Shown here piece by piece: positions 2,271 to 64,000 of a stretch of DNA of 64,000 nucleotides. The position numbers and the translations under genes were made by a program. The stretch covers positions 169,281 through 233,280 of the forward strand of contig JALHDC010000001.1 in assembly GCA_022840695.1 (NCBI GenBank). Direction: 5' to 3'. Under the pieces are notes generated by a model. The model did no database searches. It had not been told where the DNA came from and saw nothing but the letters and a program-made list of their open reading frames with translations. Position 1 is the first letter of the stretch, and every line of letters begins with the position of its first letter. This stretch comes from a bacterium (GTDB lineage: Bacteria > Patescibacteriota > Dojkabacteria > SC72).

Positions 2271-2280
2271 AAATATTTAA

Positions 2281-3383: not shown

Positions 3384-3394
3384 TTTAAAACCCG

Positions 3395-48035: not shown

Positions 48036-48650
48036 TTAGTTATTTCCTCTTCCGCTTGTACTACCTGATGAGTTCCCTGTATCACTACTATTTGAATTAT
48101 CTACATTCTGTTCCTGATTTTGTTGTTGAATCTGTGTATCAGTACCCTGATTCTGTAATGTATTCTTCTCCATCTCTAAGTTATCTCTAACCTCTTGTCC
48201 AATATTTCCATACTGCTCTTGTGCTTTAGTTGTTGTCTCTATTTGCTTCTGAATCTGCTCTTGATACTTGTTTTGAACTTGTTCCAAAGCCTTTACAACC
48301 TCTGTATTTCCTTTCTGTTCCATCTTCTCCTGTGTCTCTCCCAACTTTACAATCATTCTCTTTCTTTGTTCTTCCATCCTATTCATACACTCTTCTACAA
48401 CCTCCTCTGTTGCATCCTCTGTTCCAAGTATTTCTCCCAATTCTAATTCTCTCTCTTCCAAAATATTCTGCTCTAACTCAACCAATGCGACTTGATCTAA
48501 AGTGACTACCCTTTCCACACTCTCAAAGAAAAGATCAACAGGGTATAAAGTATCCAGTGGTGTAGCAGCATCTGCCTTTGTAGCTAGGAAATAACCTCCT
48601 ACACCTAGGATTACTACCACTCCTAGTAAAATAGAAAATACTTTCTTCAT
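48036..48650 (-). CDS. Secreted coiled-coil, Q/E-rich protein, hypothetical
   Basis: N-terminal signal/TM, low-complexity coiled coil. Confidence 0.3.
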   Translation of the reverse strand: MKKVFSILLGVVVILGVGGYFLATKADAATPLDTLYPVDLFFESVERVVTLDQVALVELEQNILEERELELGEILGTEDATEEVVEECMNRMEEQRKRMIVKLGETQEKMEQKGNTEVVKALEQVQNKYQEQIQKQIETTTKAQEQYGNIGQEVRDNLEMEKNTLQNQGTDTQIQQQNQEQNVDNSNSSDTGNSSGSTSGRGNN

Positions 48651-48722
48651 ATATATGATATATTTAATTTATATATATCTTAATATATTACACTCCTCCT
48701 ATTTAAGTTCAAGTTAAAAACT

Positions 48723-49427
48723 ATGAAAAAAATACTCTTAACCATACTATTTCTTTTAATTCCTTTTGGTATTACATATGCATATACATTGGAAGATGTG
48801 CAAGATCATAACACTCCTGGGGATTGTTGGATGATATTTGAGGAAAAGGTATATGACTTCTCAGAATATATACCATCTCATGACAAATATCTGGATATTA
48901 GAGAGTGGTGTGGTTTGGATATGACAGAAGATTTTAAGAGCAAGGGCGATTTAGGGAGAGATCATAGGGAATCAACATATGCTCTTCTAGAAATGTACGA
49001 GATTGGAGAGCTAGAAGCTACGGAGGGGAATGAGGTAGATTTAGTAGATGCAGAGATTATTTTGACTGAAGAGAGTAATGAAGATCAAGAGGTGGTAAAG
49101 GGTAGGAAGTATAATTTAGTTATACCTTTTCTCATATCAGTAATTACATATTGGAGTGGATATTTCTTAACTAAGAAAAATAAATTTTTTGGTTTAACAC
49201 TTGTTAAGTTTAATGCATTTTGGAATAGTATTCTTTTCTTAACACTACTTGTTCCTGCATTAGGGTTTGGGATTTTCATGGTAATTCGTACACAGAAACC
49301 TGAATTATGGAATATAGATTTTGATTTTCTGTATTGGCATGTAGAACTATCTATGGTTATGGGTATATTAGGGATGAATCATTTCATACAGCGGTTAGGA
49401 ATATATTTCAAACAATTGAAGAAGTAG
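48723..49427 (+). CDS. Cytochrome b5-like heme-binding domain protein, secreted/membrane (N-terminal signal, C-terminal TM helices)
   Basis: YTLEDVQDHNTPGDCWMIFEEKVYDFSEYI aligns with the b5 consensus (ytleEvakHn...cWvaihgkVYDvTkFl). The HPGG motif is replaced by PSHDKY. A second His lies in GRDHRES. Confidence 0.45.
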   Translation: MKKILLTILFLLIPFGITYAYTLEDVQDHNTPGDCWMIFEEKVYDFSEYIPSHDKYLDIREWCGLDMTEDFKSKGDLGRDHRESTYALLEMYEIGELEATEGNEVDLVDAEIILTEESNEDQEVVKGRKYNLVIPFLISVITYWSGYFLTKKNKFFGLTLVKFNAFWNSILFLTLLVPALGFGIFMVIRTQKPELWNIDFDFLYWHVELSMVMGILGMNHFIQRLGIYFKQLKK

Positions 49428-49488
49428 TGGTTTGACCAATTGGAATATATCTGCAAGAATATACAGTTAAATTTACACATATATATTA

Positions 49489-49692
49489 ATGAAAGTAAGT
49501 ATAGATAAAGAGAAGTGTTCTATGTGTGCTACATGTGTTGCAATATGTCCAGAAGTTTTTGAATTAAAAGATGATGGTAGTATAGATGTAAAGGATGAGT
49601 ATAAGGGGGTAGATGTACCTACAGAATTAGAAGCTAAGGTGCAGGAGGCTGCTTCTTCATGTCCATCTACAGCTATTGTAGTTGAAGCATAG
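49489..49692 (+). CDS. Ferredoxin (single [4Fe-4S]/[3Fe-4S] cluster type)
   Basis: 67 aa. CSMCATCVAICP ... SCP cysteine pattern. Confidence 0.75.
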   Translation: MKVSIDKEKCSMCATCVAICPEVFELKDDGSIDVKDEYKGVDVPTELEAKVQEAASSCPSTAIVVEA

Positions 49693-49695
49693 GTT

Positions 49696-50106
49696 ATGAG
49701 TGATTGTATATTTTGTAAGATAGTAAGTGGAGATATTCCCTCGTACAAGATATATGACGATGATAGGGTATTTGCTTTCTTAGATATTAAACCACTTAGT
49801 AAAGGTCATACATTGGTTCTGCCTAAGGAACATTTTGAAAATGTATTTGATATTCCTGAGGATTTGTATGCATATATGTTTGAGGTTGCTAAGAATATAT
49901 CTGCAAATATTAAGGAAAAATATCAACCTGAGGGAATTTTCATAAATCAAAACAATGGAGAGATGGCGGGACAGTCAGTACTTCATATTCATATACATGT
50001 AAAACCGATATATAACGAAAGTCAGAAACATAAAGAAGAAGATAAGGGAATGCAACTATCTACTGAAGAGATGGAAAAGATATGTAATGATTTAAAGATT
50101 GCCTAA
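49696..50106 (+). CDS. HIT-family (histidine triad) nucleotide hydrolase
   Basis: CIFCKIVSGDIPS...HLHIHIHV; the HxHxHxx motif is present. Confidence 0.9.
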   Translation: MSDCIFCKIVSGDIPSYKIYDDDRVFAFLDIKPLSKGHTLVLPKEHFENVFDIPEDLYAYMFEVAKNISANIKEKYQPEGIFINQNNGEMAGQSVLHIHIHVKPIYNESQKHKEEDKGMQLSTEEMEKICNDLKIA

Positions 50107-50934
50107 AAAATACAGTATTAATTCATCTATATACTCTGTATCTAAATCCCAATGACCTATACCCTCTACCGTGACTAATGGTATCTCTCTTCCCAATGAG
50201 CTTAGCCTATTCACAAATGTAGTACTCAATGAATACGGTACGTTCACATCGGCAGTACCATGCCATATCTGAATATCAATATCTGCTATCTTTTGTATCC
50301 TTGCTGTATTCCATTCCGCAGAGTATGTAGTTGGAGCAAGTAGTGCAATCTTGGATACCATTTCTGGATATGTAGTTGCAAAATTCATAGTAGGTAACCC
50401 TCCCATACTATATCCAATCATATATATCTTCTCTTGAGTATCGTAATTCTCTTTAATATATTCAATCATATTCAATGTATCCTGTATTGCTTGCGAGCTA
50501 CCCCAATTAGCACCATGTTGATTAGATGCTGCAAATATATAATTGTTTTTTGTAAATGCTTCTCCATACAGCTGTAAATCTTTCATAAAAGGATCTTCTG
50601 TATCTGTAGTGACTTCTGTATTAGAACCGTGACTGTATACTACAATGGTGGGAGTTGTAACTTCTGTAATCTTTTTCGGTCTAGCGATATATGCTATTTG
50701 TCCCTGTATATCTTGATATATCTCTTCATAGTGTGGAGTATCATATATATCTACCTTAATTTCTTCTTCATCCTTCTCTTCCTCTTCCTCTGTCTCAGCA
50801 TCAAATATCTCTACTCTAGGAAAAAGTACAGTGTATGCAAAGTATGTAGGTACTGAAAGGAGAATTAAGAAAAGTATTAATGCCAATATATCTGATGCAG
50901 TTATTTTTGCTTCTACCTTATTCATATTGCCCAC
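50092..50934 (-). CDS. Alpha/beta-hydrolase (esterase/lipase-like), membrane-anchored
   Basis: N-terminal TM helix, nucleophile elbow GYSMGG, and catalytic D/H candidates downstream. Confidence 0.6.
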   Translation of the reverse strand: MGNMNKVEAKITASDILALILFLILLSVPTYFAYTVLFPRVEIFDAETEEEEEKDEEEIKVDIYDTPHYEEIYQDIQGQIAYIARPKKITEVTTPTIVVYSHGSNTEVTTDTEDPFMKDLQLYGEAFTKNNYIFAASNQHGANWGSSQAIQDTLNMIEYIKENYDTQEKIYMIGYSMGGLPTMNFATTYPEMVSKIALLAPTTYSAEWNTARIQKIADIDIQIWHGTADVNVPYSLSTTFVNRLSSLGREIPLVTVEGIGHWDLDTEYIDELILYFLGNL

Positions 50935-51026
50935 ATCCTATTATATTCAGTTTTACTTAATGTGTCCATAAACGGTATAATATATATTACATAACTGTCT
51001 AGTATTTAAAATTAAAGTTTAGTTAA

Positions 51027-51779
51027 ATGGCAAATTCAAAAAAGAACGAGAAAGAAATGACTATTAACTTGGATACATTGGGAGTACCAATAGCTATCAT
51101 AGTATCAGGAATACTCATTGCTACAATGATATTTTTTGCTTCTAGGAATAATAACAATGTAGATAACGGAGCTGGGGATGATACTACTAATGTGGCTGAT
51201 GAGGGTACAGATGCACCTGTTGATTCTGAAATTAGTTTAGGTGATGATCCATATTTAGGAAATGCAGAGACTGCTAAAGTTGCTGTCATTGATTTCAGTG
51301 ACTATCAGTGTGGGTATTGTCAAAGACATAGTACTGAGGTATATCCAAGTATTAAGGAGAACTATATTGATACAGGGAAGATATTGTATGTATTTAAGGA
51401 ATTTCCTTTAAGTGGTGCTGGTCAGATTGGGTATGTAACTGCAGAGGGTGCATCATGTGTGTTCAATCTTTCAGATAGTGAGACATATGCTAAGTATCAT
51501 AAGGATGGATTCTTTCTTAATAGTAAGAGTGAGGTTGTATCATTGGCTACAAGCTTAGGTATAAATGAGGGTGAGTTTAATGCATGTTTAGATGAGGGTA
51601 AATATCAAGATGAGATAGAGGCAGATCAAACAGAGGGACAGGGTGCTGGTATTTCTGGTACTCCTGGTTTTGTAGTTGGATTGATAGGGGAGAATGGAGT
51701 TATACAGAATGCTACATTGATAGCAGGAGCATATCCATATGATACATTTGTTAATGCTATTGAGAAGTTATTAGAGTAA
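51027..51779 (+). CDS. DsbA-family thiol:disulfide oxidoreductase, membrane-anchored
   Basis: N-terminal TM. Thioredoxin fold with CGYC (FSDYQCGYCQRH) and the DsbA-like C-terminal GTPGFVV block. Confidence 0.7.
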   Translation: MANSKKNEKEMTINLDTLGVPIAIIVSGILIATMIFFASRNNNNVDNGAGDDTTNVADEGTDAPVDSEISLGDDPYLGNAETAKVAVIDFSDYQCGYCQRHSTEVYPSIKENYIDTGKILYVFKEFPLSGAGQIGYVTAEGASCVFNLSDSETYAKYHKDGFFLNSKSEVVSLATSLGINEGEFNACLDEGKYQDEIEADQTEGQGAGISGTPGFVVGLIGENGVIQNATLIAGAYPYDTFVNAIEKLLE

Positions 51780-51787
51780 TAGTTTTA

Positions 51788-52960
51788 CTATTTCTTCTTT
51801 ACAACCTTTTTAATAGTAACTTGCTTTTTAGCCATAGAGAAGTAATCATTCTTCATTCTGATTATTGCTCCTAATGCAAGTAATCCTATTATACTGCTAT
51901 AGAATCCTCCAACTACTGGAATTAGAGTAATTAGGACTGTAATAACTCTACCAATAAGGAATGATTTAAATGGTCTGTACTCTTTTACACCGAATAGTTC
52001 TAATACTTCTTTACCGAATGCTAACTCTACCCATACTTTTCCAAATATGAAAAGGAATGAGAGTAGTCCGGTTATGAGTAAAGCGAGGGGTGTCCCAATT
52101 ACTGAGAAAGAAAGAATTAATAATGGTAGAGGTATTATGACTGCAGCCAAGAAACCAATACCTAAACTACTTAGAAGGTCAGTTGTGGAATCAGTAATTC
52201 TTTTTCTAATCTCAATACTTTTTACAGGTGTTAATGTAATTAAAACAAATCCTACAAGTAGCATACTTAGGAAATTAATTAATATAATACTCAGGTTAAA
52301 TTTAAGATTTCTTTTTAATGTAGGCATATCTACATTAATACCATCATCAATATCTACTCCTTGTGATTTAGCAATATCCTTTAATGTAGTATTGTAGAAT
52401 ATATCTCCTGTTACATTCATATCATTTACAGTATGACCATCTCCTAATAGTATTGCATCACCTCTTACAATTGATTCAATATTGGATCTAAAACCTACAA
52501 TTCTAAGATCATCTCCTATTGTTCCTTTCATACTACTTTCTAAAAAGAAACCAAAGAGATCTTTCTGTGTATCGGCATTGTAGTTAAGTATTGAGGTCAT
52601 TATATATGTACTTTCTGCTAATGTTCCTTCTATAGATGTATTATTACCAAATACAAAAGTATTACCATATACTGTTGCATCTATGTTTATTTTTTCACCA
52701 ACCAAATATACATCTCCTGTTACTGTACCGTTTAGTTGTATTGTATTACCTAATACAACTACATCACCATTTACTACTCCATCTATTTTAAAGTCTTCCC
52801 CTACTGCATATATATCATCATCTATGCTTTGTTCTTGGGATAGGGTATATGATTTGAAATGGAATTGTGCAGCTTCTATTTTAGATGGAAGGAGAATAGA
52901 TAGTAATAGGAAGAGAAATGTAATGGGTAGTATCTTGTATATATTTTTAAATATATTCAT
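51788..52960 (-). CDS. Beta-helical repeat (bactofilin/DUF4097-like) protein with a C-terminal polytopic membrane domain
   Basis: Signal peptide, then repeating G-[DN]-[VT]-x-[VLI] units (GVVNGDVVVLGNTIQLNGTVTGDVYLVGEKINIDATVYGNTFVFGNNTSIEGT), then about 5 TM helices. Confidence 0.35.
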   Translation of the reverse strand: MNIFKNIYKILPITFLFLLLSILLPSKIEAAQFHFKSYTLSQEQSIDDDIYAVGEDFKIDGVVNGDVVVLGNTIQLNGTVTGDVYLVGEKINIDATVYGNTFVFGNNTSIEGTLAESTYIMTSILNYNADTQKDLFGFFLESSMKGTIGDDLRIVGFRSNIESIVRGDAILLGDGHTVNDMNVTGDIFYNTTLKDIAKSQGVDIDDGINVDMPTLKRNLKFNLSIILINFLSMLLVGFVLITLTPVKSIEIRKRITDSTTDLLSSLGIGFLAAVIIPLPLLILSFSVIGTPLALLITGLLSFLFIFGKVWVELAFGKEVLELFGVKEYRPFKSFLIGRVITVLITLIPVVGGFYSSIIGLLALGAIIRMKNDYFSMAKKQVTIKKVVKKK

Positions 52961-53066
52961 ATTTAGGACAGATTAGATTATTAGTATATGTTAGCAGATA
53001 TGAGTTTTTTGTGGAATAGGATTAAATGATTTGACGAGATTAGTAACTTCTTGGTAATATATTGGT

Positions 53067-53342
53067 ATGAAGAAAATAAAGAATTACACTACCACAGAGT
53101 TTTACAACAATCCTTCTAAAGCTTTAAACTATGTACGTGATGGAGGTGTTGTATATCTAGGGTATAAAAAGATAAAGGAGCCTATTGCAGTATTAACTAC
53201 CTATAAGGACTATACTTTCAAAAAAGAGTGTGTTGATAAGAGTAAATCTTTTTTGGAGAGGTACAAGGATAAAATAATGAGTGCCCCAGAATATCCAGAT
53301 AGTACCAAGTTAATCAGGGAGCAAAGAAATGCAGATGAATAG
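53067..53342 (+). CDS. Putative antitoxin partner of the PIN-domain protein
   Basis: 91-aa ORF overlapping the downstream PIN gene by 14 nt. Confidence 0.3.
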   Translation: MKKIKNYTTTEFYNNPSKALNYVRDGGVVYLGYKKIKEPIAVLTTYKDYTFKKECVDKSKSFLERYKDKIMSAPEYPDSTKLIREQRNADE

Positions 53343-53727
53343 GTATGTAGTAGATACAAGTTTTCTAGTTTCTTTCTTTAATAATAAAGATGTGAATCAT
53401 CTAAAGGCTTTGGAATTTATGAGTACTATGTATCATGAGTATTTAATAATCCCTACAGTTGTTATAGCTGAGTTAGCTAGTTTTAGAAAAAATAAAAAAT
53501 TTAGAGATTTAATAATAGGGAATGTTTTTAATATCGCATCGGAGATATGTTCGTTAAATGAGGCAAACATATTTGAATATCTCTCTTTTAGAGAGAATTT
53601 TGATATTAATTTGAGAGCAATGGATTCAGTAATTCTTTTTTCAGCGGTACAAGGTGATGCAGAGCTTTTAACTTTTGATGAAGAGTTATTAAAAGTGTAT
53701 TCTAAATTGCAAAAGCAAAGAAGCTAG
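53329..53727 (+). CDS. PIN-domain (VapC-like) ribonuclease toxin
   Basis: YVVDTSFLVSFF (Asp in first strand), later acidic residues (PTVVIAELAS, LTFDEEL), about 130 aa. Confidence 0.6.
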   Translation: MQMNRYVVDTSFLVSFFNNKDVNHLKALEFMSTMYHEYLIIPTVVIAELASFRKNKKFRDLIIGNVFNIASEICSLNEANIFEYLSFRENFDINLRAMDSVILFSAVQGDAELLTFDEELLKVYSKLQKQRS

Positions 53728-53912
53728 TATTTCCTTATAATCTAATAGAGTATACGGGTATATGACTAATCAGTTTTGTCTGGTAGAAGTTTTATTATTC
53801 TATCGGTGATTTCATCTTCTGATTCAGACACATATATTAAGATAATATCAAAACAAAGAGATTTAATGAAAATAGGTACATCCTTTCTTTAATTTTTCTA
53901 TGTCAATTTAGC

Positions 53913-53941
53913 ATTGAAGGAAATAAGACTATGCGATATAC
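53913..53941 (+). promoter_or_regulatory. Candidate promoter (-35 ttgaag, 17-nt spacer, -10 tatact) for the glycan-biosynthesis cluster
   Basis: Read directly in the 248-nt intergenic region upstream of 53976. Confidence 0.3.
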
Positions 53942-53975
53942 TAAGTGGAAATAAAATATAAAGACAAGAAGTCTA

Positions 53976-54995
53976 ATGATGAAACAAAATCAAGATATTT
54001 TTAAAGATAAAGTATTATTAATTACAGGTGGTACAGGTTCATTTGGAAATAGGGTTTTAAAAAGATTTTTGAATTCAGATATAAAGGAGATTAGAATATT
54101 TTCTAGGGATGAAAAAAAACAGGATGATATGAGAAAGAGATATGCAAACGATAAGATTAAGTTTTATATAGGTGATGTTCGTGATTTCAATTCAATAGAT
54201 AATGCAATGGTGGGAGTTGATTATGTATTCCAAGCTGCTGCCTTAAAACAAGTGCCATCTTGTGAATTCTTCCCTGTGGAAGCAGTGAAGACAAATATCT
54301 TAGGAACGGACAATGTTGTTAATTCAGCCATAAAGAATAAAGTTAAGAAAGTAATATGTTTGAGTACAGATAAAGCTGCATATCCCATCAATGCTATGGG
54401 TATGAGTAAAGCATTAATGGAAAAAGTAGCATTGGCAAAAGCAAGAACTGTAGATGGTAATGATACTACTATTTGTGTTACAAGATATGGAAATGTAATG
54501 GGTTCAAGAGGTTCTGTTATACCTCTTTTTTACAGGCTCATTGAAGAGGGAAAACCCCTAACTATCACCAATCCTGATATGACAAGATTTATGATGACTT
54601 TGGATGATGCTGTAGAGTTAGTATTGTTTGCATTTGAAAATGGCAGACCAGGAGATTTATTTGTTCAGAAAGCTCCGGCTGCGACTATAGAGACATTAGC
54701 AGAAGCTGTATGCAAGCATAAAGGAGTAGAAATAAATACAAAAATTATTGGTACAAGACATGGAGAAAAACAGGCTGAAACTTTAGTAACTAAAGAGGAA
54801 ATGTTAAGAGCAGAAGACTTAGGAAATTATTTTCGTATAGGAATGGATGATAGAGATCTTAATTATGAAAAATATTTTGAGAAAGGGATCAAAAGTATAG
54901 ATGATATATCTGAATACACTTCAGATAATACCACAAGATTAGATACTAACGGTATGATAGAACTCTTAATTAAAATGGGGGAAATAGAAGAATGA
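53976..54995 (+). CDS. UDP-N-acetylglucosamine 4,6-dehydratase/5-epimerase (CapE/FnlA/WbvB family)
   Basis: Near-canonical family sequence throughout (VLLITGGTGSFGN..., IRIFSRDEKKQDDMRK, YIGDVRD, FQAAALKQVPSCEF, CLSTDKAAYPINAMGMSKALMEK, TRYGNVMGSRGSVIPLF, IGTRHGEK). Confidence 0.85.
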   Translation: MMKQNQDIFKDKVLLITGGTGSFGNRVLKRFLNSDIKEIRIFSRDEKKQDDMRKRYANDKIKFYIGDVRDFNSIDNAMVGVDYVFQAAALKQVPSCEFFPVEAVKTNILGTDNVVNSAIKNKVKKVICLSTDKAAYPINAMGMSKALMEKVALAKARTVDGNDTTICVTRYGNVMGSRGSVIPLFYRLIEEGKPLTITNPDMTRFMMTLDDAVELVLFAFENGRPGDLFVQKAPAATIETLAEAVCKHKGVEINTKIIGTRHGEKQAETLVTKEEMLRAEDLGNYFRIGMDDRDLNYEKYFEKGIKSIDDISEYTSDNTTRLDTNGMIELLIKMGEIEE

Positions 54996-55858
54996 AAATC
55001 TTAATACTCGGTTGCGATGGTATGTTAGGTCATGTAGTTAAGCAGTACTTCAATGAAAGAGGTTCTGATGTTATCTGTACAACTAGAAGGGATGAAAAAT
55101 CACCCCTATATTTTGATATAACAAATAGTGTCTCGGGTATTAATACTATTGTAGATAGAGAAAAGCCTGATGTATTAATAAATTGTATTGGAATACTGAA
55201 TAAAGTTTGTGAAGAGAATAAAGCTTTAGCAGTTTTAATAAATAGCTATCTTCCTCACTATCTAGATAGACTCTCAGAAGAAAAGAATTTCAAATTTATA
55301 CATGTAAGTACAGATTGTGTTTTTGATGGAGAGGTAGGGAATTACAATGAAACAGATTTTCCTAATGCAAAAGATATGTATGGAAGATCCAAGGCATTAG
55401 GTGAGGTTATAAATGATAGAAGTGTTACATTAAGAACATCAATAGTAGGTCCAGATATAAATGAAAATGGTATAGGTCTTTTTAAATGGTTTATGGATCA
55501 AGAAGGTGAAATAGGTGGTTATGATAAAGTCATATGGACAGGGGTTACAACCATATGGTTTGCTAAGTGTATGGAGATAGCCATAGAGAAGAATTTAACT
55601 GGGTTACATCATTGTGTAAATAATGAAACAATAAGTAAGCATGATTTACTAAATCTATTTAAAAAGCATTTTAATAAAGATATAGAAATAAATGTAAATT
55701 CTGAAGTTGAAAGTAAAAAAACATTAGTTAGAACTGACTTGAGTTATGATTTTGGAATCCCAAGTTATGACAAAATGGTAGAAGAAATGAAAGAATGGGT
55801 ATTGGAACATAAGGATTTGTATCCAGAGCTAATTAAGAAAATGAAAGTTAATAAATAA
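54992..55858 (+). CDS. NAD(P)-dependent sugar-nucleotide 4-reductase, RmlD/WbvR-like (second step of a UDP-6-deoxy-L-HexNAc pathway)
   Basis: 288 aa Rossmann fold (KILILGCDGMLGH), RmlD-like length and YxxxK region (MYGRSKALGE). Translationally coupled to the CapE-like gene. Confidence 0.55.
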   Translation: MKILILGCDGMLGHVVKQYFNERGSDVICTTRRDEKSPLYFDITNSVSGINTIVDREKPDVLINCIGILNKVCEENKALAVLINSYLPHYLDRLSEEKNFKFIHVSTDCVFDGEVGNYNETDFPNAKDMYGRSKALGEVINDRSVTLRTSIVGPDINENGIGLFKWFMDQEGEIGGYDKVIWTGVTTIWFAKCMEIAIEKNLTGLHHCVNNETISKHDLLNLFKKHFNKDIEINVNSEVESKKTLVRTDLSYDFGIPSYDKMVEEMKEWVLEHKDLYPELIKKMKVNK

Positions 55859-55863
55859 ATTAA

Positions 55864-56985
55864 TTGGTTTTCAATATGAAAGTAATGACTATAGTGGGTA
55901 CAAGACCTGAAATTATTAAACTCTCTTGCGTAATTGAGGAATTAGATAAATATACGGACCATGTCTTAGTTCATACTGGACAGAATTATGATTATGAATT
56001 GAATGAAATATTTTTTGAGCAAATGGGTATCAGGAAACCAGATATATTTATGGAGGCTGCAGGAGAGACACCTGCTGAAACCATAGGGAATGTTATAAAA
56101 ATATCTGATGACCTATTTAAAGAGCATAAACCAGATGCTTTGTTAATCTATGGAGATACAAACTCCTGTCTATCCATAATATCAGCAAAGAGAAATAAAA
56201 TTCCTGTATTCCATATGGAAGCAGGTAACAGATGTTTTGATCAAAGAGTTCCAGAAGAAATTAACAGAAAAATAGTAGACCATCTAAGTGATATTAATAT
56301 GACAATAACGGAGCATGCTAGGAAGTATTTAGTATCAGAAGGTATTAGACCTGAAACAGTAATTAAGGTTGGTTCAAGTATGAAAGAGGTTTTAGAAAAA
56401 CAAAAGGAAAGTATAGAGAAGAGTAAGGTATTAGAGGAATTAGAGGTGAAACCTAAAGAATATTTTGTTCTAAGTACTCATAGGGAAGAGAATCTAGATG
56501 ATCCTAAGAATTTAGATTTTTTAGTGGAATCTATAAATGCTGTTGCAGAGAAGTATAAAATGCCTATTATCTTTTCTACTCATCCTAGAACCCAGAAAAA
56601 GATAGATGCAGGAGATATTAAATTTAATCCATTAGTAAAGATTATGAAGCCTTTGGGTTTTGCAGATTATATTACTTTACAAAAGAATGCATTTTGTGTT
56701 ATTTCTGATAGTGGAACTATTACAGAAGAATCTTCATTGTTAGGTTTTCCTGCAATTACAGTAAGGCAGGCTCATGAGAGACCAGAAGGTATGGATGAAG
56801 GAACGGTAATTATGAGCAACTTAGATAAGGAAAGTGTATTGGATAGTATAAAGGTAGTAACAGAACAGAATGTTAGGATGAATGTAGTTAGTGATTATGA
56901 TAATGATATTTTAGCTAGTAAAATAGTTAGAATAATACTAAGTTATACAGGATATATTAATAGGACTGTATGGAAGAAGTATTAA
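55864..56985 (+). CDS. UDP-N-acetylglucosamine 2-epimerase, non-hydrolysing (WecB/FnlC/WbvD family)
   Basis: VMTIVGTRPEIIKL, HTGQNYDYELNEIFF, GDTNS, HMEAGNRCFDQRVPEEINRKIVDHLSDIN, SDSGTITEESSLLGFPAITVRQAHERPEG. Confidence 0.85.
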   Translation: MVFNMKVMTIVGTRPEIIKLSCVIEELDKYTDHVLVHTGQNYDYELNEIFFEQMGIRKPDIFMEAAGETPAETIGNVIKISDDLFKEHKPDALLIYGDTNSCLSIISAKRNKIPVFHMEAGNRCFDQRVPEEINRKIVDHLSDINMTITEHARKYLVSEGIRPETVIKVGSSMKEVLEKQKESIEKSKVLEELEVKPKEYFVLSTHREENLDDPKNLDFLVESINAVAEKYKMPIIFSTHPRTQKKIDAGDIKFNPLVKIMKPLGFADYITLQKNAFCVISDSGTITEESSLLGFPAITVRQAHERPEGMDEGTVIMSNLDKESVLDSIKVVTEQNVRMNVVSDYDNDILASKIVRIILSYTGYINRTVWKKY

Positions 56986-57059
56986 AAAGATTATCGCTTT
57001 AAGAAGGTAGCTATCCAGGCATTCGTTGTCATTATAAATTTATATAAAAAGTTTTTCTA

Positions 57060-58487
57060 ATGAATTTTAAAAAGAATAAGAATAATGTAAAGGCATTTAT
57101 GGATCTAGAGGCAGGTAATAGGAATTATTGGATAAAAAGAGCAAAATATTATTATTCCGATTTGAGCAATTTTCTTATAAAGAATATTTCTTCCTCAGAA
57201 AGTATTTTAGAGGTAGGGTGTGGGATTGGTAATTTGATAGGAAAATTTAAAGCAAAAAGATTAGTAGGTGTTGATATCTCTCAAATAATGATAGATGAGG
57301 CTAAAAAGAATAATCCAGAAGTAGAGTTTTACAATATAAATATTGAAAGTAAATTTCAATTAAAAGGTAAGTTTGATCAAATAATAATTTCCGACACAAT
57401 TGGTTATTTTGAAGATGTTCAAAAAGTATTCACCAATCTAAAACCTCTTACACATAGTGGTACTAGAATAATAATAACTTATCAGAACTTCTTATGGAAT
57501 TGGTTATTGAGTATTTTAGAAATTTTACGTTTGAAAATGCCAACAAAGAACATAAAATTAAATTGGCTAGAAATTGAAGACATAAATAATCTACTTCGTC
57601 TATCGGGCTTTGAAGTTGTTAAAACTGGAAGAAGGATGCTTTTTCCAATCAACATACCATTATTATCTTATTTCATAAATAAATATATAGCGAATCTGCC
57701 TTTAATAAATAATCTTTGTTTGACTACCTATGTAATTGCAAGACCACTAGAACCAAAGGAAAAAGAAGTTGGTGTAAGTATAATTATTCCTGCTAGAAAC
57801 GAAAAAGGGAACATAGAAGAAGCAATTAATAGACTGCCGAATTTTGGAGCATGGCAAGAGATAATTTTTGTAGAGGGCCATTCCAGTGATGGTACTTATG
57901 AAGAAATCAAGAGGGTCTCCCAAAAATACCGAGGAGACTATATAATTAAATATTTTAGACAAGAAGGTAAGGGCAAAGGAGATGCAGTGAGAAAGGGTTT
58001 TGATAAGGCCAAAGGCGAGATATTAATGATTCAAGATGCAGATTTGACAGCCCCTCCTGAGGATTTGCCAAAATTTTATAATGCTATTGTTACTGGATTA
58101 GGCGAATTCATCAATGGCAGTAGATTAGTATATCCATTGGAAAAAGATTCTATGAGATTTCTTAATATCCTTGGAAACAAAATCTTTTCAATTTTATTTT
58201 CCTGGCTTTTATCCCAAAGAGTAAAAGATACACTTTGTGGTACGAAAGTAATTTCCAAAGAAAATTGGAAAAAAATATCTGCAAACAGAAAATATTTTGG
58301 AGATTTTGATCCTTTTGGAGATTTTGATTTAATTTTTGGAGCCACAAAATTAAATCTAAAATATGTAGAAATTCCTGTCAGATATAAAGCAAGAACCTAT
58401 GGATCAACAAATATCTCTAGATTTAAACATGGTTTACTATTGATTAAAATGGTATTCTTTGCAATGGGAAAAATAAAATTTGTATAA
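57060..58487 (+). CDS. Fusion protein: class I SAM-dependent methyltransferase (N-terminal) plus family-2 glycosyltransferase (C-terminal)
   Basis: Motif I ILEVGCGIGNLIG. GT2 block VSIIIPARNEKGNIEEAINRL ... MIQDADLTAPPEDL (DxD). Confidence 0.6.
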   Translation: MNFKKNKNNVKAFMDLEAGNRNYWIKRAKYYYSDLSNFLIKNISSSESILEVGCGIGNLIGKFKAKRLVGVDISQIMIDEAKKNNPEVEFYNINIESKFQLKGKFDQIIISDTIGYFEDVQKVFTNLKPLTHSGTRIIITYQNFLWNWLLSILEILRLKMPTKNIKLNWLEIEDINNLLRLSGFEVVKTGRRMLFPINIPLLSYFINKYIANLPLINNLCLTTYVIARPLEPKEKEVGVSIIIPARNEKGNIEEAINRLPNFGAWQEIIFVEGHSSDGTYEEIKRVSQKYRGDYIIKYFRQEGKGKGDAVRKGFDKAKGEILMIQDADLTAPPEDLPKFYNAIVTGLGEFINGSRLVYPLEKDSMRFLNILGNKIFSILFSWLLSQRVKDTLCGTKVISKENWKKISANRKYFGDFDPFGDFDLIFGATKLNLKYVEIPVRYKARTYGSTNISRFKHGLLLIKMVFFAMGKIKFV

Positions 58488-59226
58488 TTATTCTATGAAA
58501 GAAGAAGATCAAAGGTTAGAAAATGAGATTAATCATGGGAAATTTATTGCTAAACATGGTGAGGAAATTTGGAATTGGTCTTCTCCAGCAGGAAAAGTAA
58601 GATGGCAAAGAAGAGTAGACATTTTCAAAGATTATATTGGTAACAAAAACAAAAAAATATTGGAGATTGGATGTGGAACGGGTTTGTTTACATCAGAAAT
58701 TGCTTGTACAAGCAATCAAATTGTTGCAATAGATATTTCAAAAGATTTACTTGATATCGCAAGGAGAAAAGTGAATAAAAAAAATGTTGTATTTCAAATA
58801 GAAAATGCTTATAAATCATCTTTTAAGGATAAGTCTTTTGATTTTATAGTTGGTAGCTCAGTATTACATCATTTAGATGAAGATTTAGCCTTGCAAGAAT
58901 TCTTCAGAGTATTAAAAGATGGTGGGAAAATTATCTTTACAGAACCTAATATACTGAATCCACAAATCGCTTTACAAAAAAATATTGCCTTTATTAAGAA
59001 AGCTGTTGGAGACTCTCCGGATGAAAAGGCTTTCTTAAAATGGTCTCTTGAAAAGAAATTAAAAAAATATGGATTTAAAGACATAGAGATAATAAATTTT
59101 GATTTTCTCCACCCGGCAATTCCGAAGTTTATGCTATCTATTATGAGAAAAATTACATACATTATTGAAAAAATTCCTGTAATAAAGTTAATCAGTGGTT
59201 CCTTAATTATAAAAGCATCAAAGTAA
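58480..59226 (+). CDS. Class I SAM-dependent methyltransferase
   Basis: ILEIGCGTGLFTSEIA (motif I), DFIVGSSVLHHL (motif II/III). Confidence 0.6.
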   Translation: MYNYSMKEEDQRLENEINHGKFIAKHGEEIWNWSSPAGKVRWQRRVDIFKDYIGNKNKKILEIGCGTGLFTSEIACTSNQIVAIDISKDLLDIARRKVNKKNVVFQIENAYKSSFKDKSFDFIVGSSVLHHLDEDLALQEFFRVLKDGGKIIFTEPNILNPQIALQKNIAFIKKAVGDSPDEKAFLKWSLEKKLKKYGFKDIEIINFDFLHPAIPKFMLSIMRKITYIIEKIPVIKLISGSLIIKASK

Positions 59227-59231
59227 GAGAT

Positions 59232-59885
59232 ATGAAAAATGTAAAATTTGTTGTGCCAAGGAAAGGTGTCCTCACTTCAAACGGTCCGAGTGATCCTATT
59301 GATTTCTATTACAAACCTATATCTAAAAGTATGTATATTGGTCGTATACAAGTGGGACTTGATTTATTAAAATCTCATTATAAAAGAGTTATGGAATTTG
59401 GTTATGGTAGTGCAATTTTGTTCCCAACTTTGGATATAATTTCTGATGAATTATTTGGTTTAGATATCGACTCTGAACCAAAGATCATTTCCGAAAACAT
59501 CGCAGATTTAAATTTAAAAAACAAACCTATCTTAAGTCAGAAGGATTTGATAAAGGAGGGATATCCTGATAACTATTTTGACCTAATTGTAGCATTTTCG
59601 GTTTTTGAACATATTAAAAATCCTAATAAATTATTGAAAGAATTGTATAGAATAATGAGACCCAAGGGACAGTTATTAGTTGGTATGCCAAGGGTTGATA
59701 AATATATGAAACAGTTATTTAAATTGATAGGATTTGATAAAATCGATGACCATCATGTGGCAAGACATCAAGATTTTGTAATTAATGCAGCTAAATATTT
59801 TGAATTAATAGACAAACAACATTTTCCAAAGTGTTGCCCAGAAATATGCGGATTATATTTTAATATGCTCTTCGAAAAGAAATGA
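59232..59885 (+). CDS. Class I SAM-dependent methyltransferase (type 11-like)
   Basis: VMEFGYGSAIL and DLIVAFSVFEHIKNPNKLLKELYRIMRPKGQLLV. Confidence 0.5.
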   Translation: MKNVKFVVPRKGVLTSNGPSDPIDFYYKPISKSMYIGRIQVGLDLLKSHYKRVMEFGYGSAILFPTLDIISDELFGLDIDSEPKIISENIADLNLKNKPILSQKDLIKEGYPDNYFDLIVAFSVFEHIKNPNKLLKELYRIMRPKGQLLVGMPRVDKYMKQLFKLIGFDKIDDHHVARHQDFVINAAKYFELIDKQHFPKCCPEICGLYFNMLFEKK

Positions 59886-61267
59886 GAAGAAGACTATATG
59901 AATTTTTGGACAAATATAAGTTTTTCATTATTCTTGTCCTTATAATTTGTTTTTGGGTTGTACGATTACCTCTGTTTAATGAGAAATTTGGCTGGCATAT
60001 ATGGGAAGATGGAAATGGATTAGATACAGCAATTTTTGTAAATCAACCATTGTATCCTAATTATAGTTTAAGTGGAAGAATAAATGGTAAAGAATTATAT
60101 TTTCCAATTGTGGGGCATCCTTTGTTGCCATATGAAATGTTCAGATTACTTGGTAAATTTGTCAATTTTTTTCTTCCTTTCGAGAATTTCTCGGCTGAAC
60201 ATACTGTACTCTCTATAAAAATAATGGTTACTTCTTTTCAATTCTTAATATACTTCTTGATAGGTTTACAATTATTCAAGAGAGTTGAGAATCCTTTGAA
60301 AAAGACTTTATCATTTATTTTATTATTCCTATTAACCTGTGCTCCTATTTCCATATACAATTCGAATGAATTTCAAATAGATAGTTTTTGGGGATTCTTG
60401 ATGATAGGACTATTTTTTCTTGCATTTATTAACTTCCTTAATTACAAAAAAATGTTTCCAGGAATCTTTCTTCTCTTGTCATCAGCCTTTGTTGGCTTTG
60501 GAAAAAACGAGTGGAGTCTAATGTTAATTCCTTCCTGTATCTTTATTCTTTTGTTATATGTAGTTATTCAGAAATTGATGGAAAAAGAGAAATTTGATAG
60601 CTTCTTTATTAAAACAATTGTAATTGTTGTTGTTGGGAACCTGGTAGGTAATTTCATAAATTACTTACTTGATCCACAAATGTACATAAGTGGAATTAAT
60701 TTGATTGTTAAAATGGTTACAATTGGAACCATGTCTGGTGCTCCAAATACAGTTTCCTGGTTCGATGTTTTTGTTATTAGAATCCCGTTTATTAGTACTT
60801 GTATATTACTTGTATTTCTCATATTACTTTTTATTTGCCAATATAGGAAGAAAATCGATTATTATTATCTATTTTTATTTATTTACAGTTTTTCTTTATT
60901 TTTTGCTTTTTTTATATCCTCATGGGGAAATTATTCAAGATACTTTGCTCCCAGCTTAATAGGGTTGATATATGTATTTTTGCTTTATTTCACGACGTAT
61001 AAAATTAATAAGACCAATATAGTTGCAATAATAATTACAATGTTGATTACGATTTTTTTTGGTTATAAACAGATTAAGGAATTTCATATACAATCAAAAA
61101 ACAGTGAATATTTTAGTGTTGTGAAAGATCCTTCTTTGAACTGTATACCATTAATAGATGTTGGAAGAGTTTATAAAAATAAGGAAATAGACTTCATCCA
61201 TCTCTCAATTGGCTATTCAGAAGCACAGAAGATCGCAGATGATTTTGGGAAGGAGGTGTGTAGGTGA
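59882..61267 (+). CDS. Large polytopic membrane protein (about 12 TM). Possibly a GT-C-type glycosyltransferase or polymer polymerase; not assignable.
   Basis: 461 aa, highly hydrophobic, embedded in the glycan cluster. Confidence 0.3.
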   Translation: MRRRLYEFLDKYKFFIILVLIICFWVVRLPLFNEKFGWHIWEDGNGLDTAIFVNQPLYPNYSLSGRINGKELYFPIVGHPLLPYEMFRLLGKFVNFFLPFENFSAEHTVLSIKIMVTSFQFLIYFLIGLQLFKRVENPLKKTLSFILLFLLTCAPISIYNSNEFQIDSFWGFLMIGLFFLAFINFLNYKKMFPGIFLLLSSAFVGFGKNEWSLMLIPSCIFILLLYVVIQKLMEKEKFDSFFIKTIVIVVVGNLVGNFINYLLDPQMYISGINLIVKMVTIGTMSGAPNTVSWFDVFVIRIPFISTCILLVFLILLFICQYRKKIDYYYLFLFIYSFSLFFAFFISSWGNYSRYFAPSLIGLIYVFLLYFTTYKINKTNIVAIIITMLITIFFGYKQIKEFHIQSKNSEYFSVVKDPSLNCIPLIDVGRVYKNKEIDFIHLSIGYSEAQKIADDFGKEVCR

Positions 61268-61401
61268 TCTCAAAGATATTTCAGCAATGCTGTAATCTTT
61301 TAGTCTTGTATTGCTAAATATATTGAATGTTGTTCTGTAAGTACTCCCTAATATTACGAATTTGGATAGTTAACACCTATGTGTTATTATACAAAACATA
61401 A

Positions 61402-61674
61402 ATGCAAAAGACATTCAATACAAATAAAAATAATTATAACTTCCAAGAATCTCAGAAATTGTTAAGTGAAGTTTCAATATTACTCGCAAATATAACTAAG
61501 TATGTAGAAGGAAGAGAAGAATATATTATCTATTTAGAAAAACAAATAAAAGAACATGATAAAATTCGATTTTTATTAAAAAAGATTGGAAGATTAGTTA
61601 TTTGCAACATTAGGAAAAGAGTTTCTTTTGTCATCAATAAAATTAAGGATAAATTTAAATCATATATTAAATGA
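61402..61674 (+). CDS. Hypothetical small protein
   Basis: 90-aa ORF overlapping the next gene by 4 nt. Confidence 0.2.
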   Translation: MQKTFNTNKNNYNFQESQKLLSEVSILLANITKYVEGREEYIIYLEKQIKEHDKIRFLLKKIGRLVICNIRKRVSFVINKIKDKFKSYIK

Positions 61675-62897
61675 AGATATTGCAGGTAAACGATATAGAT
61701 TTGCCAGGCAGAAGATTTAATGGTTATGATCTACAATTAATGCTTAATGAAAATGGACATGAGGCTAAGCAGATAGTAATGAATAAACTTAGTAGAGATA
61801 ATAATGTTATTTCTTTGATTAATACCCAAGGAGGCCATTTTATAAGAGAGAAGTGTAGGGAGTTTGAAGAGAGGATATCCTTACAATCAGTGGCTTATCC
61901 ATTTGGAGAACTTCTATTGGAATCAAAATTCTTCAAAAAAGCAGATATTGTTCATTATCACCTTATTTTCAATCACTTACTATCGCTGTATTCTTTTAAA
62001 GATTTGGTTAATGCAAAGCCTTCTGTTTGGACTTTGCATGATCCGTGGGCTTTGACAGGACATTGTGTCCATCCTGTAGATTGCCAAGGTTGGCTTACAG
62101 GTTGTAAAAATTGTCCTTATTTGGATAGATATTCTCCTTTAAATAAGGATAACTCAAATAGTATTTGGAATATGAAAAAAGAGATATATAAAAGTATTGA
62201 TATAGATATAGTTGTTTCTTCCCAGTGGATGTACGACATGGTAAAGAGAAGTCCATTAACTAAGCACTTTGAGAGAGTACATTTAATACCATTTGGAATA
62301 GATCTTGAACATTTTAAGGCTAGGAAGAATAAAGAAGAAATTAGGGAAAATTTGGGAATAAAGAAGGACTCTTTTGTTATGATGTTCAGACAAGATGATC
62401 AAGAGTGGAAGGGATTACCTTTTATTAAAGAGATGCTCAATAATTTAAAAGTGAACAAACATGTGACACTACTAACAGTTGGCAAAATTGGATTATTAGA
62501 AGAGTATAAGAGTAGGTATGATGTAATAGAATATGAATGGGTAAATGATAATAATTTTTTGGTTGATTTATATTCTGCAGCAGATTTATTTCTAATGCCT
62601 TCAGTAGCAGAATCCTTTGGAATGATGGCAATAGAAGCAATGGCTTGTTCTCTACCGGTAGTAGTAATGGAGGGGACTGCTTTGCCACGTGTTACTTTTG
62701 CACCAGAATTTGGAGTATCCTTTTCAAAAGGTAATATTTTTGAATTTACTCAAAAAGTTTCTGACTTAATTATGACTGAGGAAGAGTTGAGACATAGGCA
62801 ATCTATAGTAAGAAAAAAAATAGAGGAAAACTACGATATAAAAATTTATAATTCGAAGATTCTCAAGATGTATGAAAAAATATATTCTAAGAAATAA
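61671..62897 (+). CDS. Glycosyltransferase family 4 (GT-B, group 1)
   Basis: C-terminal EX7E region LMPSVAESFGMMAIEAMACSLPVVVME. Confidence 0.75.
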   Translation: MKILQVNDIDLPGRRFNGYDLQLMLNENGHEAKQIVMNKLSRDNNVISLINTQGGHFIREKCREFEERISLQSVAYPFGELLLESKFFKKADIVHYHLIFNHLLSLYSFKDLVNAKPSVWTLHDPWALTGHCVHPVDCQGWLTGCKNCPYLDRYSPLNKDNSNSIWNMKKEIYKSIDIDIVVSSQWMYDMVKRSPLTKHFERVHLIPFGIDLEHFKARKNKEEIRENLGIKKDSFVMMFRQDDQEWKGLPFIKEMLNNLKVNKHVTLLTVGKIGLLEEYKSRYDVIEYEWVNDNNFLVDLYSAADLFLMPSVAESFGMMAIEAMACSLPVVVMEGTALPRVTFAPEFGVSFSKGNIFEFTQKVSDLIMTEEELRHRQSIVRKKIEENYDIKIYNSKILKMYEKIYSKK

Positions 62898-62915
62898 GAT
62901 TATTAGAAAGATAAC

Positions 62916-63629
62916 TTGATTGAATTAATAAGTCCTAAAAGTGTAAAAAAAGAAATGGAATTAATCCAAGATTTTGATTCATTTGGACTTAAACATTTGG
63001 ATATTAATTCTCCTCTTGGCTGGAATTATATACTTGATCACACTTGGTTATACAGGATGATAGAGAATTACTTAAATACTTCCCTTATACGAGAGCCTGT
63101 TATTTTGGATGTAGGTTGTGGTAATTCATCATTTCATAATTTTGTTGAAGACAAATTGAATATTGAAGTTCTTGGTCTTGATAGACCTGCAGGTTATTGT
63201 CATCAAAATAAACTTAAAAATGTTGATTTCAATGTTGACTTTCTCAAGTTTAAAAAATATGCGGAGGAGACAGTCGATATTATATATTGGTTATCATCTA
63301 TTGAGCACAACAAATTGGATGATATTAAGGCTTTGTATGAAAAGAGTATGTATTTCTTACGACCAGGAGGACTTTTATTAGTAACATTTCCGATAAGTCA
63401 GGAGACATCTTGGTTTGATCAATCACAACAGACCAATATGTCTATAAAAACAGCCTTGAAAGTTTTTGAGGAGAAAAAAGTCTGTGGTCGTTACAAGAAA
63501 ACTCGTAAAGAATTTCAAAATAATATCTTGTACCTGAAGGACAAATATGAAAAAAGATATGGGAAATTTGATAGGAATGACCCTGAATTTATAGTGGGAG
63601 GCTTGTATAAAATTAAAGCATCTCTTTAG
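62916..63629 (+). CDS. Class I SAM-dependent methyltransferase
   Basis: VILDVGCGNSSFHNFV (motif I), VDIIYWLSSIEH, LRPGGLLLVTFP. Confidence 0.5.
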   Translation: MIELISPKSVKKEMELIQDFDSFGLKHLDINSPLGWNYILDHTWLYRMIENYLNTSLIREPVILDVGCGNSSFHNFVEDKLNIEVLGLDRPAGYCHQNKLKNVDFNVDFLKFKKYAEETVDIIYWLSSIEHNKLDDIKALYEKSMYFLRPGGLLLVTFPISQETSWFDQSQQTNMSIKTALKVFEEKKVCGRYKKTRKEFQNNILYLKDKYEKRYGKFDRNDPEFIVGGLYKIKASL

Positions 63630-64000
63630 ATATATGGTGTTTCGTCATTTTATCCCAGTAATCCTCTCCGTACTTTCTTTTTAGAATGTCTCTCATGTTT
63701 CGATCAGCTAGTGTAACTCTATCTCCTGCCGACATATTCATTCTTTTCATCTTGTATCCTATATTTGTGATTTTTGTTACATTTACTCTTTCGTCTATCC
63801 ATAAGCTTAGGTGATTCTTTCTAGCTAAATAACAGGTCTCAAGATCAATTCCCCAAGCATATACCAATTCGGGGTCAAACCATCCTATTTTGTCAAACCA
63901 ATCAGCACGAAACATAGAAGCTATATTATCAATCATCCAAGTTTCTCTAGGCTTCTTAGTATCTCTAGTTATCAAATGAGTCCAGTAGGTTGTGCTTTCT
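63613..64000 (-). CDS. Glycosyltransferase-like protein, C-terminal part (GT2-like). The reading frame stays open to the window end, so the gene is truncated by the window.
   Basis: WFDPELVYAWGIDLETCYLARKN resembles GT2 C-terminal regions. No stop codon lies between 63976 and 64000 in this frame. Confidence 0.35.
   Translation of the reverse strand, partial: ESTTYWTHLITRDTKKPRETWMIDNIASMFRADWFDKIGWFDPELVYAWGIDLETCYLARKNHLSLWIDERVNVTKITNIGYKMKRMNMSAGDRVTLADRNMRDILKRKYGEDYWDKMTKHHISKEML

Follow-up and report, generated by a model that had tools for sequence, protein, structure and literature searches.

We analyzed a stretch of 64,000 nucleotides, hereafter the window, from a bacterium placed in the Dojkabacteria (GenBank assembly GCA_022840695.1, contig JALHDC010000001.1, positions 169,281 to 233,280 of the forward strand). 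Its right-hand end, at 53976-63629, carries a glycan-biosynthesis locus. With moderate confidence, which applies jointly to all of its parts, we take this region to be a single operon for a cell-surface glycan pathway, belonging to a small-genome bacterium resembling those of the candidate phyla radiation (CPR). The reading has three blocks. Three enzymes are predicted to make UDP-L-QuiNAc, the UDP-activated form of a rare sugar, N-acetyl-L-quinovosamine (L-QuiNAc), a donor system like those of the Gtr and Arn type is predicted to add a probably methylated sugar outside the membrane, and cytoplasmic glycosyltransferases would build the main L-QuiNAc-containing glycan. The locus as a whole is real and coherent, and this overall picture is unsurprising; the L-QuiNAc cassette alone is ordinary. 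New here are the L-QuiNAc assignment, a probable GT-C glycosyltransferase of an unrecognized family, and the conserved link of this protein to a widespread and unstudied fusion of a methyltransferase with a family 2 glycosyltransferase (GT2).

The ten plus-strand genes (Table 1) lie in a tight run: no gap exceeds 135 bp, and several neighbors overlap by 4 bp. A scan of the window found no terminator-like site inside the run, and a promoter scan performed no better than on shuffled sequence (56 sites versus 59 expected). The G+C content of the window is about 32%. Genes were assigned by Pfam, NCBIfam, and PDB sequence searches and by Foldseek comparison of AlphaFold (AF2) models, with hhalign used for weak cases. 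Exact matches to the proteins were found on NCBI contig JALHFM010000001.1 (L001; assembly GCA_022839185.1, 239.6 kb) and on several contigs derived from the Sequence Read Archive (SRA). On L001, the locus continues for about 6 kb past the end of the window, up to the end of the contig, with further GT2 and family 4 (GT4) glycosyltransferase genes. Since similar gene sets recur on independent contigs (35-67% identity), the clustering of these genes is not due to chance. The original prediction, made from the DNA sequence alone, had described a glycan-biosynthesis locus with four S-adenosylmethionine (SAM) methyltransferase domains and several glycosyltransferases, and our assignments bear this out. 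Its open reading frames (ORFs) were all recovered at their coordinates, and its inventory was essentially correct; a 90-amino-acid (aa) ORF at 61402-61674 is missing from its list.

The first three genes encode the enzymes of a nucleotide-sugar route. The dehydratase matches Polysacc_synt_2 (PF02719, E = 4.5e-102) and the Polysacc_syn_2C tail (PF08485, E = 4e-17), and it has the N-terminal GxxGxxG motif as TGGTGSFG at residues 18-25. In its catalytic motif, STDKA...NAMGMSK, Met replaces the Tyr of short-chain dehydrogenases/reductases, as it does in CapE and FnlA; the segment STDKAAYPINAMGMSK aligns with INAMGISK of those two enzymes. The best PDB matches are FnlA of Acinetobacter baumannii (4j2o, 497 bits) and CapE (457 bits). 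Against the FnlA model TIGR04130 it scores 533 bits, under the equivalog cut-off of 730. This cut-off appears to be set for the fnlABC subgroup, because the dehydratase of the Escherichia coli qnl cluster is likewise left unnamed by the NCBI annotation pipeline (PGAP). The third enzyme is a nonhydrolyzing 2-epimerase (Epimerase_2, E = 1.5e-90) that scores 244 bits against the wecB model TIGR00236, over the cut-off of 210. Its closest PDB entries are 4hwg from Rickettsia bellii (481 bits) and CapG (7ya2, 440 bits), compared with 105-145 bits for classical WecB/MnaA. We use the start at 55876 as called on L001; the ORF opens at a TTG at 55864.

E. coli O-antigen loci contain two types of such a cassette: fnlA-wbjC-wecB, which belongs to the N-acetyl-L-fucosamine (L-FucNAc) branch, and a second type annotated as "polysaccharide biosynthesis protein," "dTDP-4-dehydrorhamnose reductase family protein," and wecB. 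The dehydratase from the window is 68% identical to E. coli fnlA and equally to the qnlA-like gene, and the 2-epimerase is 55% identical to its E. coli counterpart, the same for fnlC and the qnl type. As these two enzymes are equally similar to both cassettes, which is expected, the branch is decided by the reductase. This protein matches RmlD_sub_bind (PF04321, E = 3.9e-28) and aligns over its full length with the reductase of the fnlA-qnlBC type in the same gene position in E. coli (38% identity, 169 bits), keeping the motif STDCVFDG...YGRSK. It has no match to the WbjC model NF047837 and no similarity to E. coli WbjC (E = 0.02), and a protein of about 370 aa of the FnlB/WbjC/CapF type is absent from the locus. 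The wbvBRD and fnlA-qnlBC genes have been assigned to UDP-L-QuiNAc synthesis via UDP-N-acetyl-L-rhamnosamine (UDP-L-RhaNAc) (PMC6765297; PMC4379981). By homology, the route in the window is thus predicted to be that of the L-RhaNAc/L-QuiNAc branch: the three enzymes would convert UDP-N-acetylglucosamine (UDP-GlcNAc) to UDP-L-RhaNAc and then to UDP-L-QuiNAc. That they make UDP-L-FucNAc instead, by the FnlABC/CapEFG/WbjBCD route, is hardly credible. The shared similarity of the dehydratase and the 2-epimerase would allow it, but the reductase is of the other kind, and L-FucNAc is effectively excluded because no enzyme of the FnlB/WbjC/CapF type is present. The original prediction had proposed a three-enzyme route of the L-FucNAc/L-QuiNAc type; the route is there, narrowed by the reductase to the second of these sugars. 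It had also made the route depend on the reductase not grouping with RmlD. The reductase indeed scores only 93 bits against the rmlD model TIGR01214, far under the cut-off of 224, and 31 bits against Salmonella RmlD (1kbz), and no rmlA, rmlB, or rmlC is found among the genes of the locus and its continuation on L001. Grouping with RmlD was a badly posed test, however, because WbvR/QnlB is itself RmlD-like.

In its three enzyme types and their order, the cassette matches WbvB/WbvR/WbvD of Vibrio cholerae O37, which corresponds to fnlA-qnlB-qnlC in E. coli and to the first three pso genes in Rickettsia. In contrast to the E. coli and V. cholerae cassettes, the reductase here is divergent (38%) and the dehydratase falls under the FnlA equivalog cut-off. 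The host is CPR-like rather than a proteobacterium with lipopolysaccharide. Assembly GCA_022839185.1 lacks 104 bp of the dehydratase gene (window 54018-54121; about position 2451 of L001) that the window and two SRA-derived contigs, L002 and L003, contain. The missing piece takes the GxxGxxG NAD-binding motif with it and changes the reading frame, and the gene is called as an N-terminally truncated protein of 288 aa. Either an assembly error or a variant within the population that turns the pathway off could explain the gap. A reductase with 77% identity, labelled Candidatus Methanofastidiosum and encoded on a 3.4-kb contig, had suggested transfer from archaea. We rejected this, since a longer contig with the identical protein (L099) has the upstream gene order of the window (48036-55858: DUF5667, HIT, hydrolase, DsbA-like, DUF8173, antitoxin/PIN, dehydratase). 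Misbinning is the probable source of the archaeal label.

The fourth gene encodes the fusion of a class I SAM methyltransferase with a GT2 domain. Both domains are intact, and motif I and the DAD motif are invariant across 19 homologs. The GT2 half is predicted, by sequence and by model, to be of the polyprenyl-phosphate glycosyltransferase type (the DPMS/GtrB/ArnC/AglJ clade). Its best NCBIfam match is AglJ (105 bits), followed by a Dol-P hexose transferase and ArnC, and its best PDB sequence matches are DPMS (5mlz, 66 bits), ArnC, and GtrB. The motif DADLTAPPED aligns with DADLQHPPE of DPMS and DADLQNPPE of ArnC. When the AF2 model was compared by Foldseek, the top 12 matches were all ArnC, DPMS, or GtrB (E = 1e-14 to 1e-11). 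The fusion is common: more than 8000 homologs of equal length exist at about 60% identity, and at least 595 species-level matches at about 50-60% identity come from Bacteroidota, Nitrospirota, Omnitrophota, Planctomycetota, CPR groups, and others. Our literature search found no paper describing this methyltransferase-GT2 fusion and no functional study of it.

The seventh gene encodes a membrane protein with no match to Pfam, NCBIfam, or PDB by sequence. Its predicted structure is the multipass GT-C fold (about 10-13 transmembrane [TM] helices) shared with ALG, PMT, STT3, ArnT, and Aft enzymes. ALG12 is the best match in the fold comparison, and most of the other matches act on lipid-linked or polysaccharide acceptors. 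A word-indexed search gave 4 relatives, and 252 representatives were found among 1.84 billion proteins. A profile of the family (124 members) matched no solved structure by sequence, a search with the family alignment A1 against one genome per species found nothing, and PMT_2 matched weakly in 1 of 100 members. About 10 residues after the first TM helix there is an E-[D/E] pair: E42 is kept in 86% of the 124 members, and position 43 is acidic in 99%. The catalytic acid of GT-C enzymes usually lies here, in the first extracytoplasmic loop, and the pair agrees with that placement. Residues H79, D167, K208, E210, W211, and R353 are nearly invariant. Taken together, the model and the conserved residues suggest a GT-C of an unrecognized family. 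We had also considered a polymerase, a flippase, and a permease and rejected them on fold. The original prediction had seen both the fusion and a 12-TM membrane protein, and both are confirmed; it missed that the GT2 half is of the polyprenyl-phosphate sugar synthase type and that the membrane protein is a likely GT-C.

Three stand-alone class I methyltransferases, MT2, MT3, and MT4, complete the set of four such domains. All four are over Pfam cut-offs, MT4 marginally so (Methyltransf_25, 30.0 bits with a cut-off of 27; Methyltransf_11, 28.6 bits with a cut-off of 21.2), and motif I reads LEVGCGIG, LEIGCGTG, MEFGYGSA, and LDVGCGNS (ILDVGCGNS in MT4). The idea of a "heavily O-/N-methylated," possibly novel glycan remains a prediction. 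MT2 orthologs (236-347 bits) directly adjoin the fusion in Bacteroidota, Saccharibacteria, Deltaproteobacteria, and other loci, and MT3 orthologs (64-74% identity) adjoin the GT-C gene on contigs L007 and L010, with a split copy on L097. The GT4 has an ortholog of 70% identity at the same position on L010. The small 90-aa ORF has no Pfam hit and no family match. Its stop overlaps the GT4 start by 4 bp, it is translationally coupled to the GT4, and its position between the GT-C and GT4 genes is kept in at least three organisms, with counterparts of 81 aa (49% identity) on L010 and 75 aa on L095.

The fusion, the methyltransferases, and the GT-C family occur together on several unrelated contigs. 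The order in the window is fusion, MT2, MT3, GT-C, small ORF, GT4. L010 and L011 have MT2, MT3, GT-C, small ORF, and GT4 at 67-78% identity; L095 has fusion, MT2, another methyltransferase, GT-C, small ORF, and GT4. On L007, genes of the L-QuiNAc type are followed by MT3, fusion, and GT-C. L097 carries a split MT3, GT-C, a split fusion, and MT2, and L098 carries GT-C, a methyltransferase, an SMR-like protein, and the fusion. The fusion is thus no more than three genes from a GT-C family member in the window and on L007, L095, L097, and L098, accompanied by MT2 and/or MT3 orthologs. We then surveyed 75 loci from many phyla from the side of the fusion, counting as a membrane neighbor any protein of at least 380 aa with at least 7 predicted TM helices no more than three genes away. 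Such a protein was found in 43 of the 75 loci, and in 35 of the 52 with complete flanks. Where the immediate neighbor of the fusion is a soluble protein of 225-295 aa (37 loci), it is a class I methyltransferase in 30, and some of these are clear MT2 orthologs. L-QuiNAc genes are rarely near the fusion in other loci, and therefore the sugar of the module is probably not L-QuiNAc. On L097 (119-397) and L098 (6960-7322), small SMR/EamA-like membrane proteins adjoin the GT-C gene; they resemble the ArnE/ArnF type and are candidate flippases, with no counterpart in the locus of the window.

The synthase-type GT2 and the GT-C protein together point to an extracytoplasmic glycosylation step. We propose that the Dpm1/ArnC/GtrB-like GT2 would attach a monosaccharide to polyprenyl phosphate on the cytoplasmic side of the membrane, and that the fused methyltransferase, MT2, and MT3 would modify the lipid-linked sugar or its product. 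Once the sugar had been flipped, the GT-C would move it off the lipid carrier and onto an extracytoplasmic acceptor. What is observed for this block is its folds, motifs, and gene linkage; its chemistry is argued by analogy, and the use of a polyprenyl-(di)phosphate-linked donor by the GT-C is suggested by its fold and the adjacent synthase-type GT2. In the third block, as judged from the gene content, the GT4, the downstream GT2 and GT4 genes, and MT4 would build and decorate the main L-QuiNAc-containing glycan in the cytoplasm from nucleotide sugars. The acceptor could be a polysaccharide, a lipoglycan, or a protein. Three-component systems of this kind are a precedent, including the tailoring of a lipid-linked sugar before transfer (PMC11127046). 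Like GtrA/GtrB/Gtr* of Shigella and Salmonella, ArnC/ArnEF/ArnT, and the pentofuranose systems (PMC11127046), the locus has a GT2 related to GtrB/ArnC/DPMS and a GT-C within a glycan locus, and its candidate tailoring enzymes are comparable to ArnD and the undP-Ribf (undecaprenyl-phosphate-linked ribofuranose) epimerases. Unlike in these systems, there is no flippase gene, the synthase has an N-terminal methyltransferase and no TM anchor, two more methyltransferases are present, and the GT-C is not covered by a Pfam model and resembles no solved GT-C in sequence.

Several observations weigh against this three-block reading. In the locus and the 6 kb to the end of L001 there is no flippase (GtrA, SMR, MATE, Wzx), no small multi-TM protein, no initiating phosphoglycosyltransferase, and no polymerase, ligase, or ABC exporter. 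A hydropathy scan gives the fusion 0 TM helices, unlike GtrB, ArnC, and archaeal DPMS, which have a C-terminal anchor; its hydrophobic helices lie only between the two domains and at the C terminus (residues 454-471, short). Human DPM1 also lacks a TM anchor. The GT-C model was built from a 5-sequence alignment, and its catalytic loop, residues 36-45, has a confidence score (pLDDT) under 50. Among the 43 membrane neighbors of the fusion, only 8 carry a Pfam GT-C label (seven PMT_2, one YfhO); most have no Pfam hit, and a few are Wzx-type, Wzy-type, or unrelated proteins. Finally, the PDB and NCBIfam matches of the methyltransferases are those of generic class I enzymes; in the PDB, phosphoethanolamine N-methyltransferases score best for MT2 (68 bits) and MT3 (29 bits).

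The main alternative for the fusion is capping of the WsaE kind, in which all assembly and methylation are cytoplasmic. The fusion would add and methylate a sugar on a chain linked to a lipid through pyrophosphate, for example as a chain-terminating cap, the other methyltransferases would O-methylate the finished repeat, and the 12-TM protein would act only in export, polymerization, or ligation. WsaE of Geobacillus stearothermophilus is a characterized fusion of an N-terminal methyltransferase with a rhamnosyltransferase that caps the S-layer glycan (PMC2943079), encoded like ours in a surface-glycan locus and with GT2-type domains. The missing flippase for a lipid-linked monosaccharide and the missing TM anchor are both in favor of this alternative, as is a distant GT-C relative on L008 whose locus also encodes an ABC-2 exporter and four methyltransferases. 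WsaE differs, however, in being a soluble enzyme of the nucleotide-sugar-dependent (Leloir) kind with two glycosyltransferase domains that acts on the growing chain, whereas the fusion here is linked to a GT-C, and its one GT2 domain belongs to the polyprenyl-phosphate synthase clade. We consider cytoplasmic capping unlikely.

Protein O-glycosylation of the Ppm1/PMT kind, known from Actinobacteria and eukaryotes, appears improbable. The GT-C would then move the sugar, methylated or not, from polyprenyl phosphate to Ser/Thr of secreted proteins of the S-layer or pilin type, and the L-QuiNAc genes would serve a separate glycan. The protein has no MIR or other PMT-specific domains, its similarity to PMT sequences comes down to the one weak family member, and ALG12 and acceptors of the lipid-linked or polysaccharide kind dominate its fold matches. 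In addition, it is accompanied by methyltransferases, Leloir glycosyltransferases consistently surround the module, and no candidate acceptor protein is encoded nearby. We give little weight to the possibility that some or all of the methyltransferases act on something other than a sugar (phosphoethanolamine on the way to phosphocholine, a lipid, or a carboxyl group), so that the sugars are not O-methylated. The phosphoethanolamine N-methyltransferase matches of MT2 and MT3 would fit, and the phospholipid N-methyltransferase PmtA is among the weak NCBIfam matches. But such low scores are typical of any Methyltransf_11 protein, and we judged them generic and set that identity aside for MT2 and MT3; the locus has no phosphoethanolamine or choline transferase, kinase, or cytidylyltransferase, and a methyltransferase fused to a glycosyltransferase argues for a sugar-linked substrate. 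An L-QuiNAc glycan combined with a Gtr/Arn-like donor system remains, on balance, our preferred and probable reading.

A broader claim is tentative and, taken jointly, doubtful: that the fusion, its partner methyltransferase or methyltransferases, and the GT-C form a widespread, uncharacterized extracytoplasmic system in which the sugar is methylated on the lipid carrier before transfer, and that the 461-aa protein founds a new GT-C family in CAZy. If true, this would add a GT-C family that escapes present sequence models. Hardly any envelope glycan has been defined by experiment in small-genome, mostly uncultured bacteria of this kind. For one of them, the locus makes specific chemical predictions, namely, L-QuiNAc and a lipid-linked, probably methylated side sugar, and the connection with GT-C enzymes offers a function, open to testing, for a fusion family that is very common.

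Table 1. Genes and domains of the glycan locus, in window coordinates; enzyme names are predicted functions.
Feature	Position	Strand	Basis
UDP-GlcNAc 4,6-dehydratase/5(3)-epimerase, FnlA/CapE/WbvB type, 339 aa	53976-54995	+	Pfam, NCBIfam, PDB
C4 reductase, WbvR/QnlB type, RmlD fold, 288 aa; predicted product UDP-L-RhaNAc	54992-55858	+	Pfam, E. coli comparison
Nonhydrolyzing 2-epimerase, WbvD/QnlC/CapG type, 369 aa; predicted product UDP-L-QuiNAc	55876-56985	+	Pfam, NCBIfam, PDB
Methyltransferase-GT2 fusion, 475 aa	57060-58487	+	Methyltransf_23/31/25/11 + Glycos_transf_2
Fusion, N-terminal class I SAM methyltransferase domain	about residues 26-188, nt 57135-57623	+	Pfam
Fusion, C-terminal GT2, probable polyprenyl-phosphate sugar synthase type	about residues 239-466, nt 57774-58457	+	Pfam, NCBIfam, PDB, Foldseek
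Class I SAM methyltransferase MT2, 243 aa	58495-59226	+	Methyltransf_11 E = 1.5e-23
Class I SAM methyltransferase MT3, 217 aa	59232-59885	+	Methyltransf_23 E = 3e-15
Probable GT-C-fold glycosyltransferase, 461 aa, about 12-13 TM	59882-61267	+	Fold (model)
Small conserved ORF, 90 aa, soluble	61402-61674	+	Called as gene on five contigs
GT4 (GT-B fold) Leloir glycosyltransferase, 408 aa	61671-62897	+	Glycos_transf_1 E = 2.1e-17, Glyco_transf_4
Divergent class I SAM methyltransferase MT4, 237 aa, TTG start (alternative start: 224 aa)	62916-63629	+	Pfam
Convergent gene, C-terminal 129 codons of 233 aa	63613-64000	-	Open frame; full gene L001 11943-12644 (-)

An eleventh ORF, on the minus strand, is convergent with the MT4 gene, with an overlap of 17 bp, and its frame stays open as far as the window edge. 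The original prediction had called this a GT2-like gene running off the window, which we do not support. Neither Pfam, even at E up to 10, nor a PDB sequence search matches the protein, and its hhalign comparison with a GT2 alignment yields E = 0.07. It is faintly GT-A-like at most, with IDNGSD present and no DxD, the aligned position reading TSTN. A gene on L010 and L011 that also encodes 233 aa was considered as its counterpart and rejected; the two proteins are unrelated, and their equal length is coincidental.

Farther downstream on L001, three glycosyltransferase genes end in a coiled coil and a common motif, S-[FL]-S-W-K-x-T-x-[PI]-L-R-x-x-x-x-L-[LV]-N (14080-14142, 15929-15991, and from 18083 onward). 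Neither the proteins of the window nor the related loci checked have the motif, which may serve as a tag for assembly or membrane association. Between 14139 and 18371 of L001, a GT2 N-terminal module, MKREFNPKVSIVIPVYNGSNY..., is present three times, and two of the genes appear to be broken: in one, a frameshift divides a two-domain GT2 into ORFs of 422 and 206 aa, and the other is a GT2-GT4 fusion that lacks about 40 codons and is called as ORFs of 55 and 696 aa. Either paralog decay or assembly collapse between the repeats would account for this.

Directly 5′ of the operon, at 53067-53727, lies a toxin-antitoxin pair in which the ORF of a VapB-like antitoxin of 91 aa overlaps that of a PIN-domain toxin. 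A gap of 248 bp separates the pair from the first operon gene, and its position 5′ of the glycan operon is kept in relatives. Also kept beside the locus in relatives is a minus-strand gene at 51788-52960. It encodes a protein of 390 aa with a signal-peptide-like N terminus, a repetitive G-D/N-V region, and C-terminal TM helices. DUF8173 is listed for this protein in precomputed Pfam hits; our own Pfam scan did not give that match. Elsewhere in the window, the RNase P RNA at 11866-12149 is of bacterial class A and has only 284 nucleotides compared with 367 model positions, and the ribosomal operon L18-S5-L15-SecY at 1944-4660 has no L30 gene, the S5 stop abutting the L15 start. Together with the G+C content, these features indicate a bacterial host and would fit a Patescibacteria/CPR origin, though they are no proof of one. 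Both the short RNase P RNA and the missing L30 gene are typical of reduced genomes of the CPR type.

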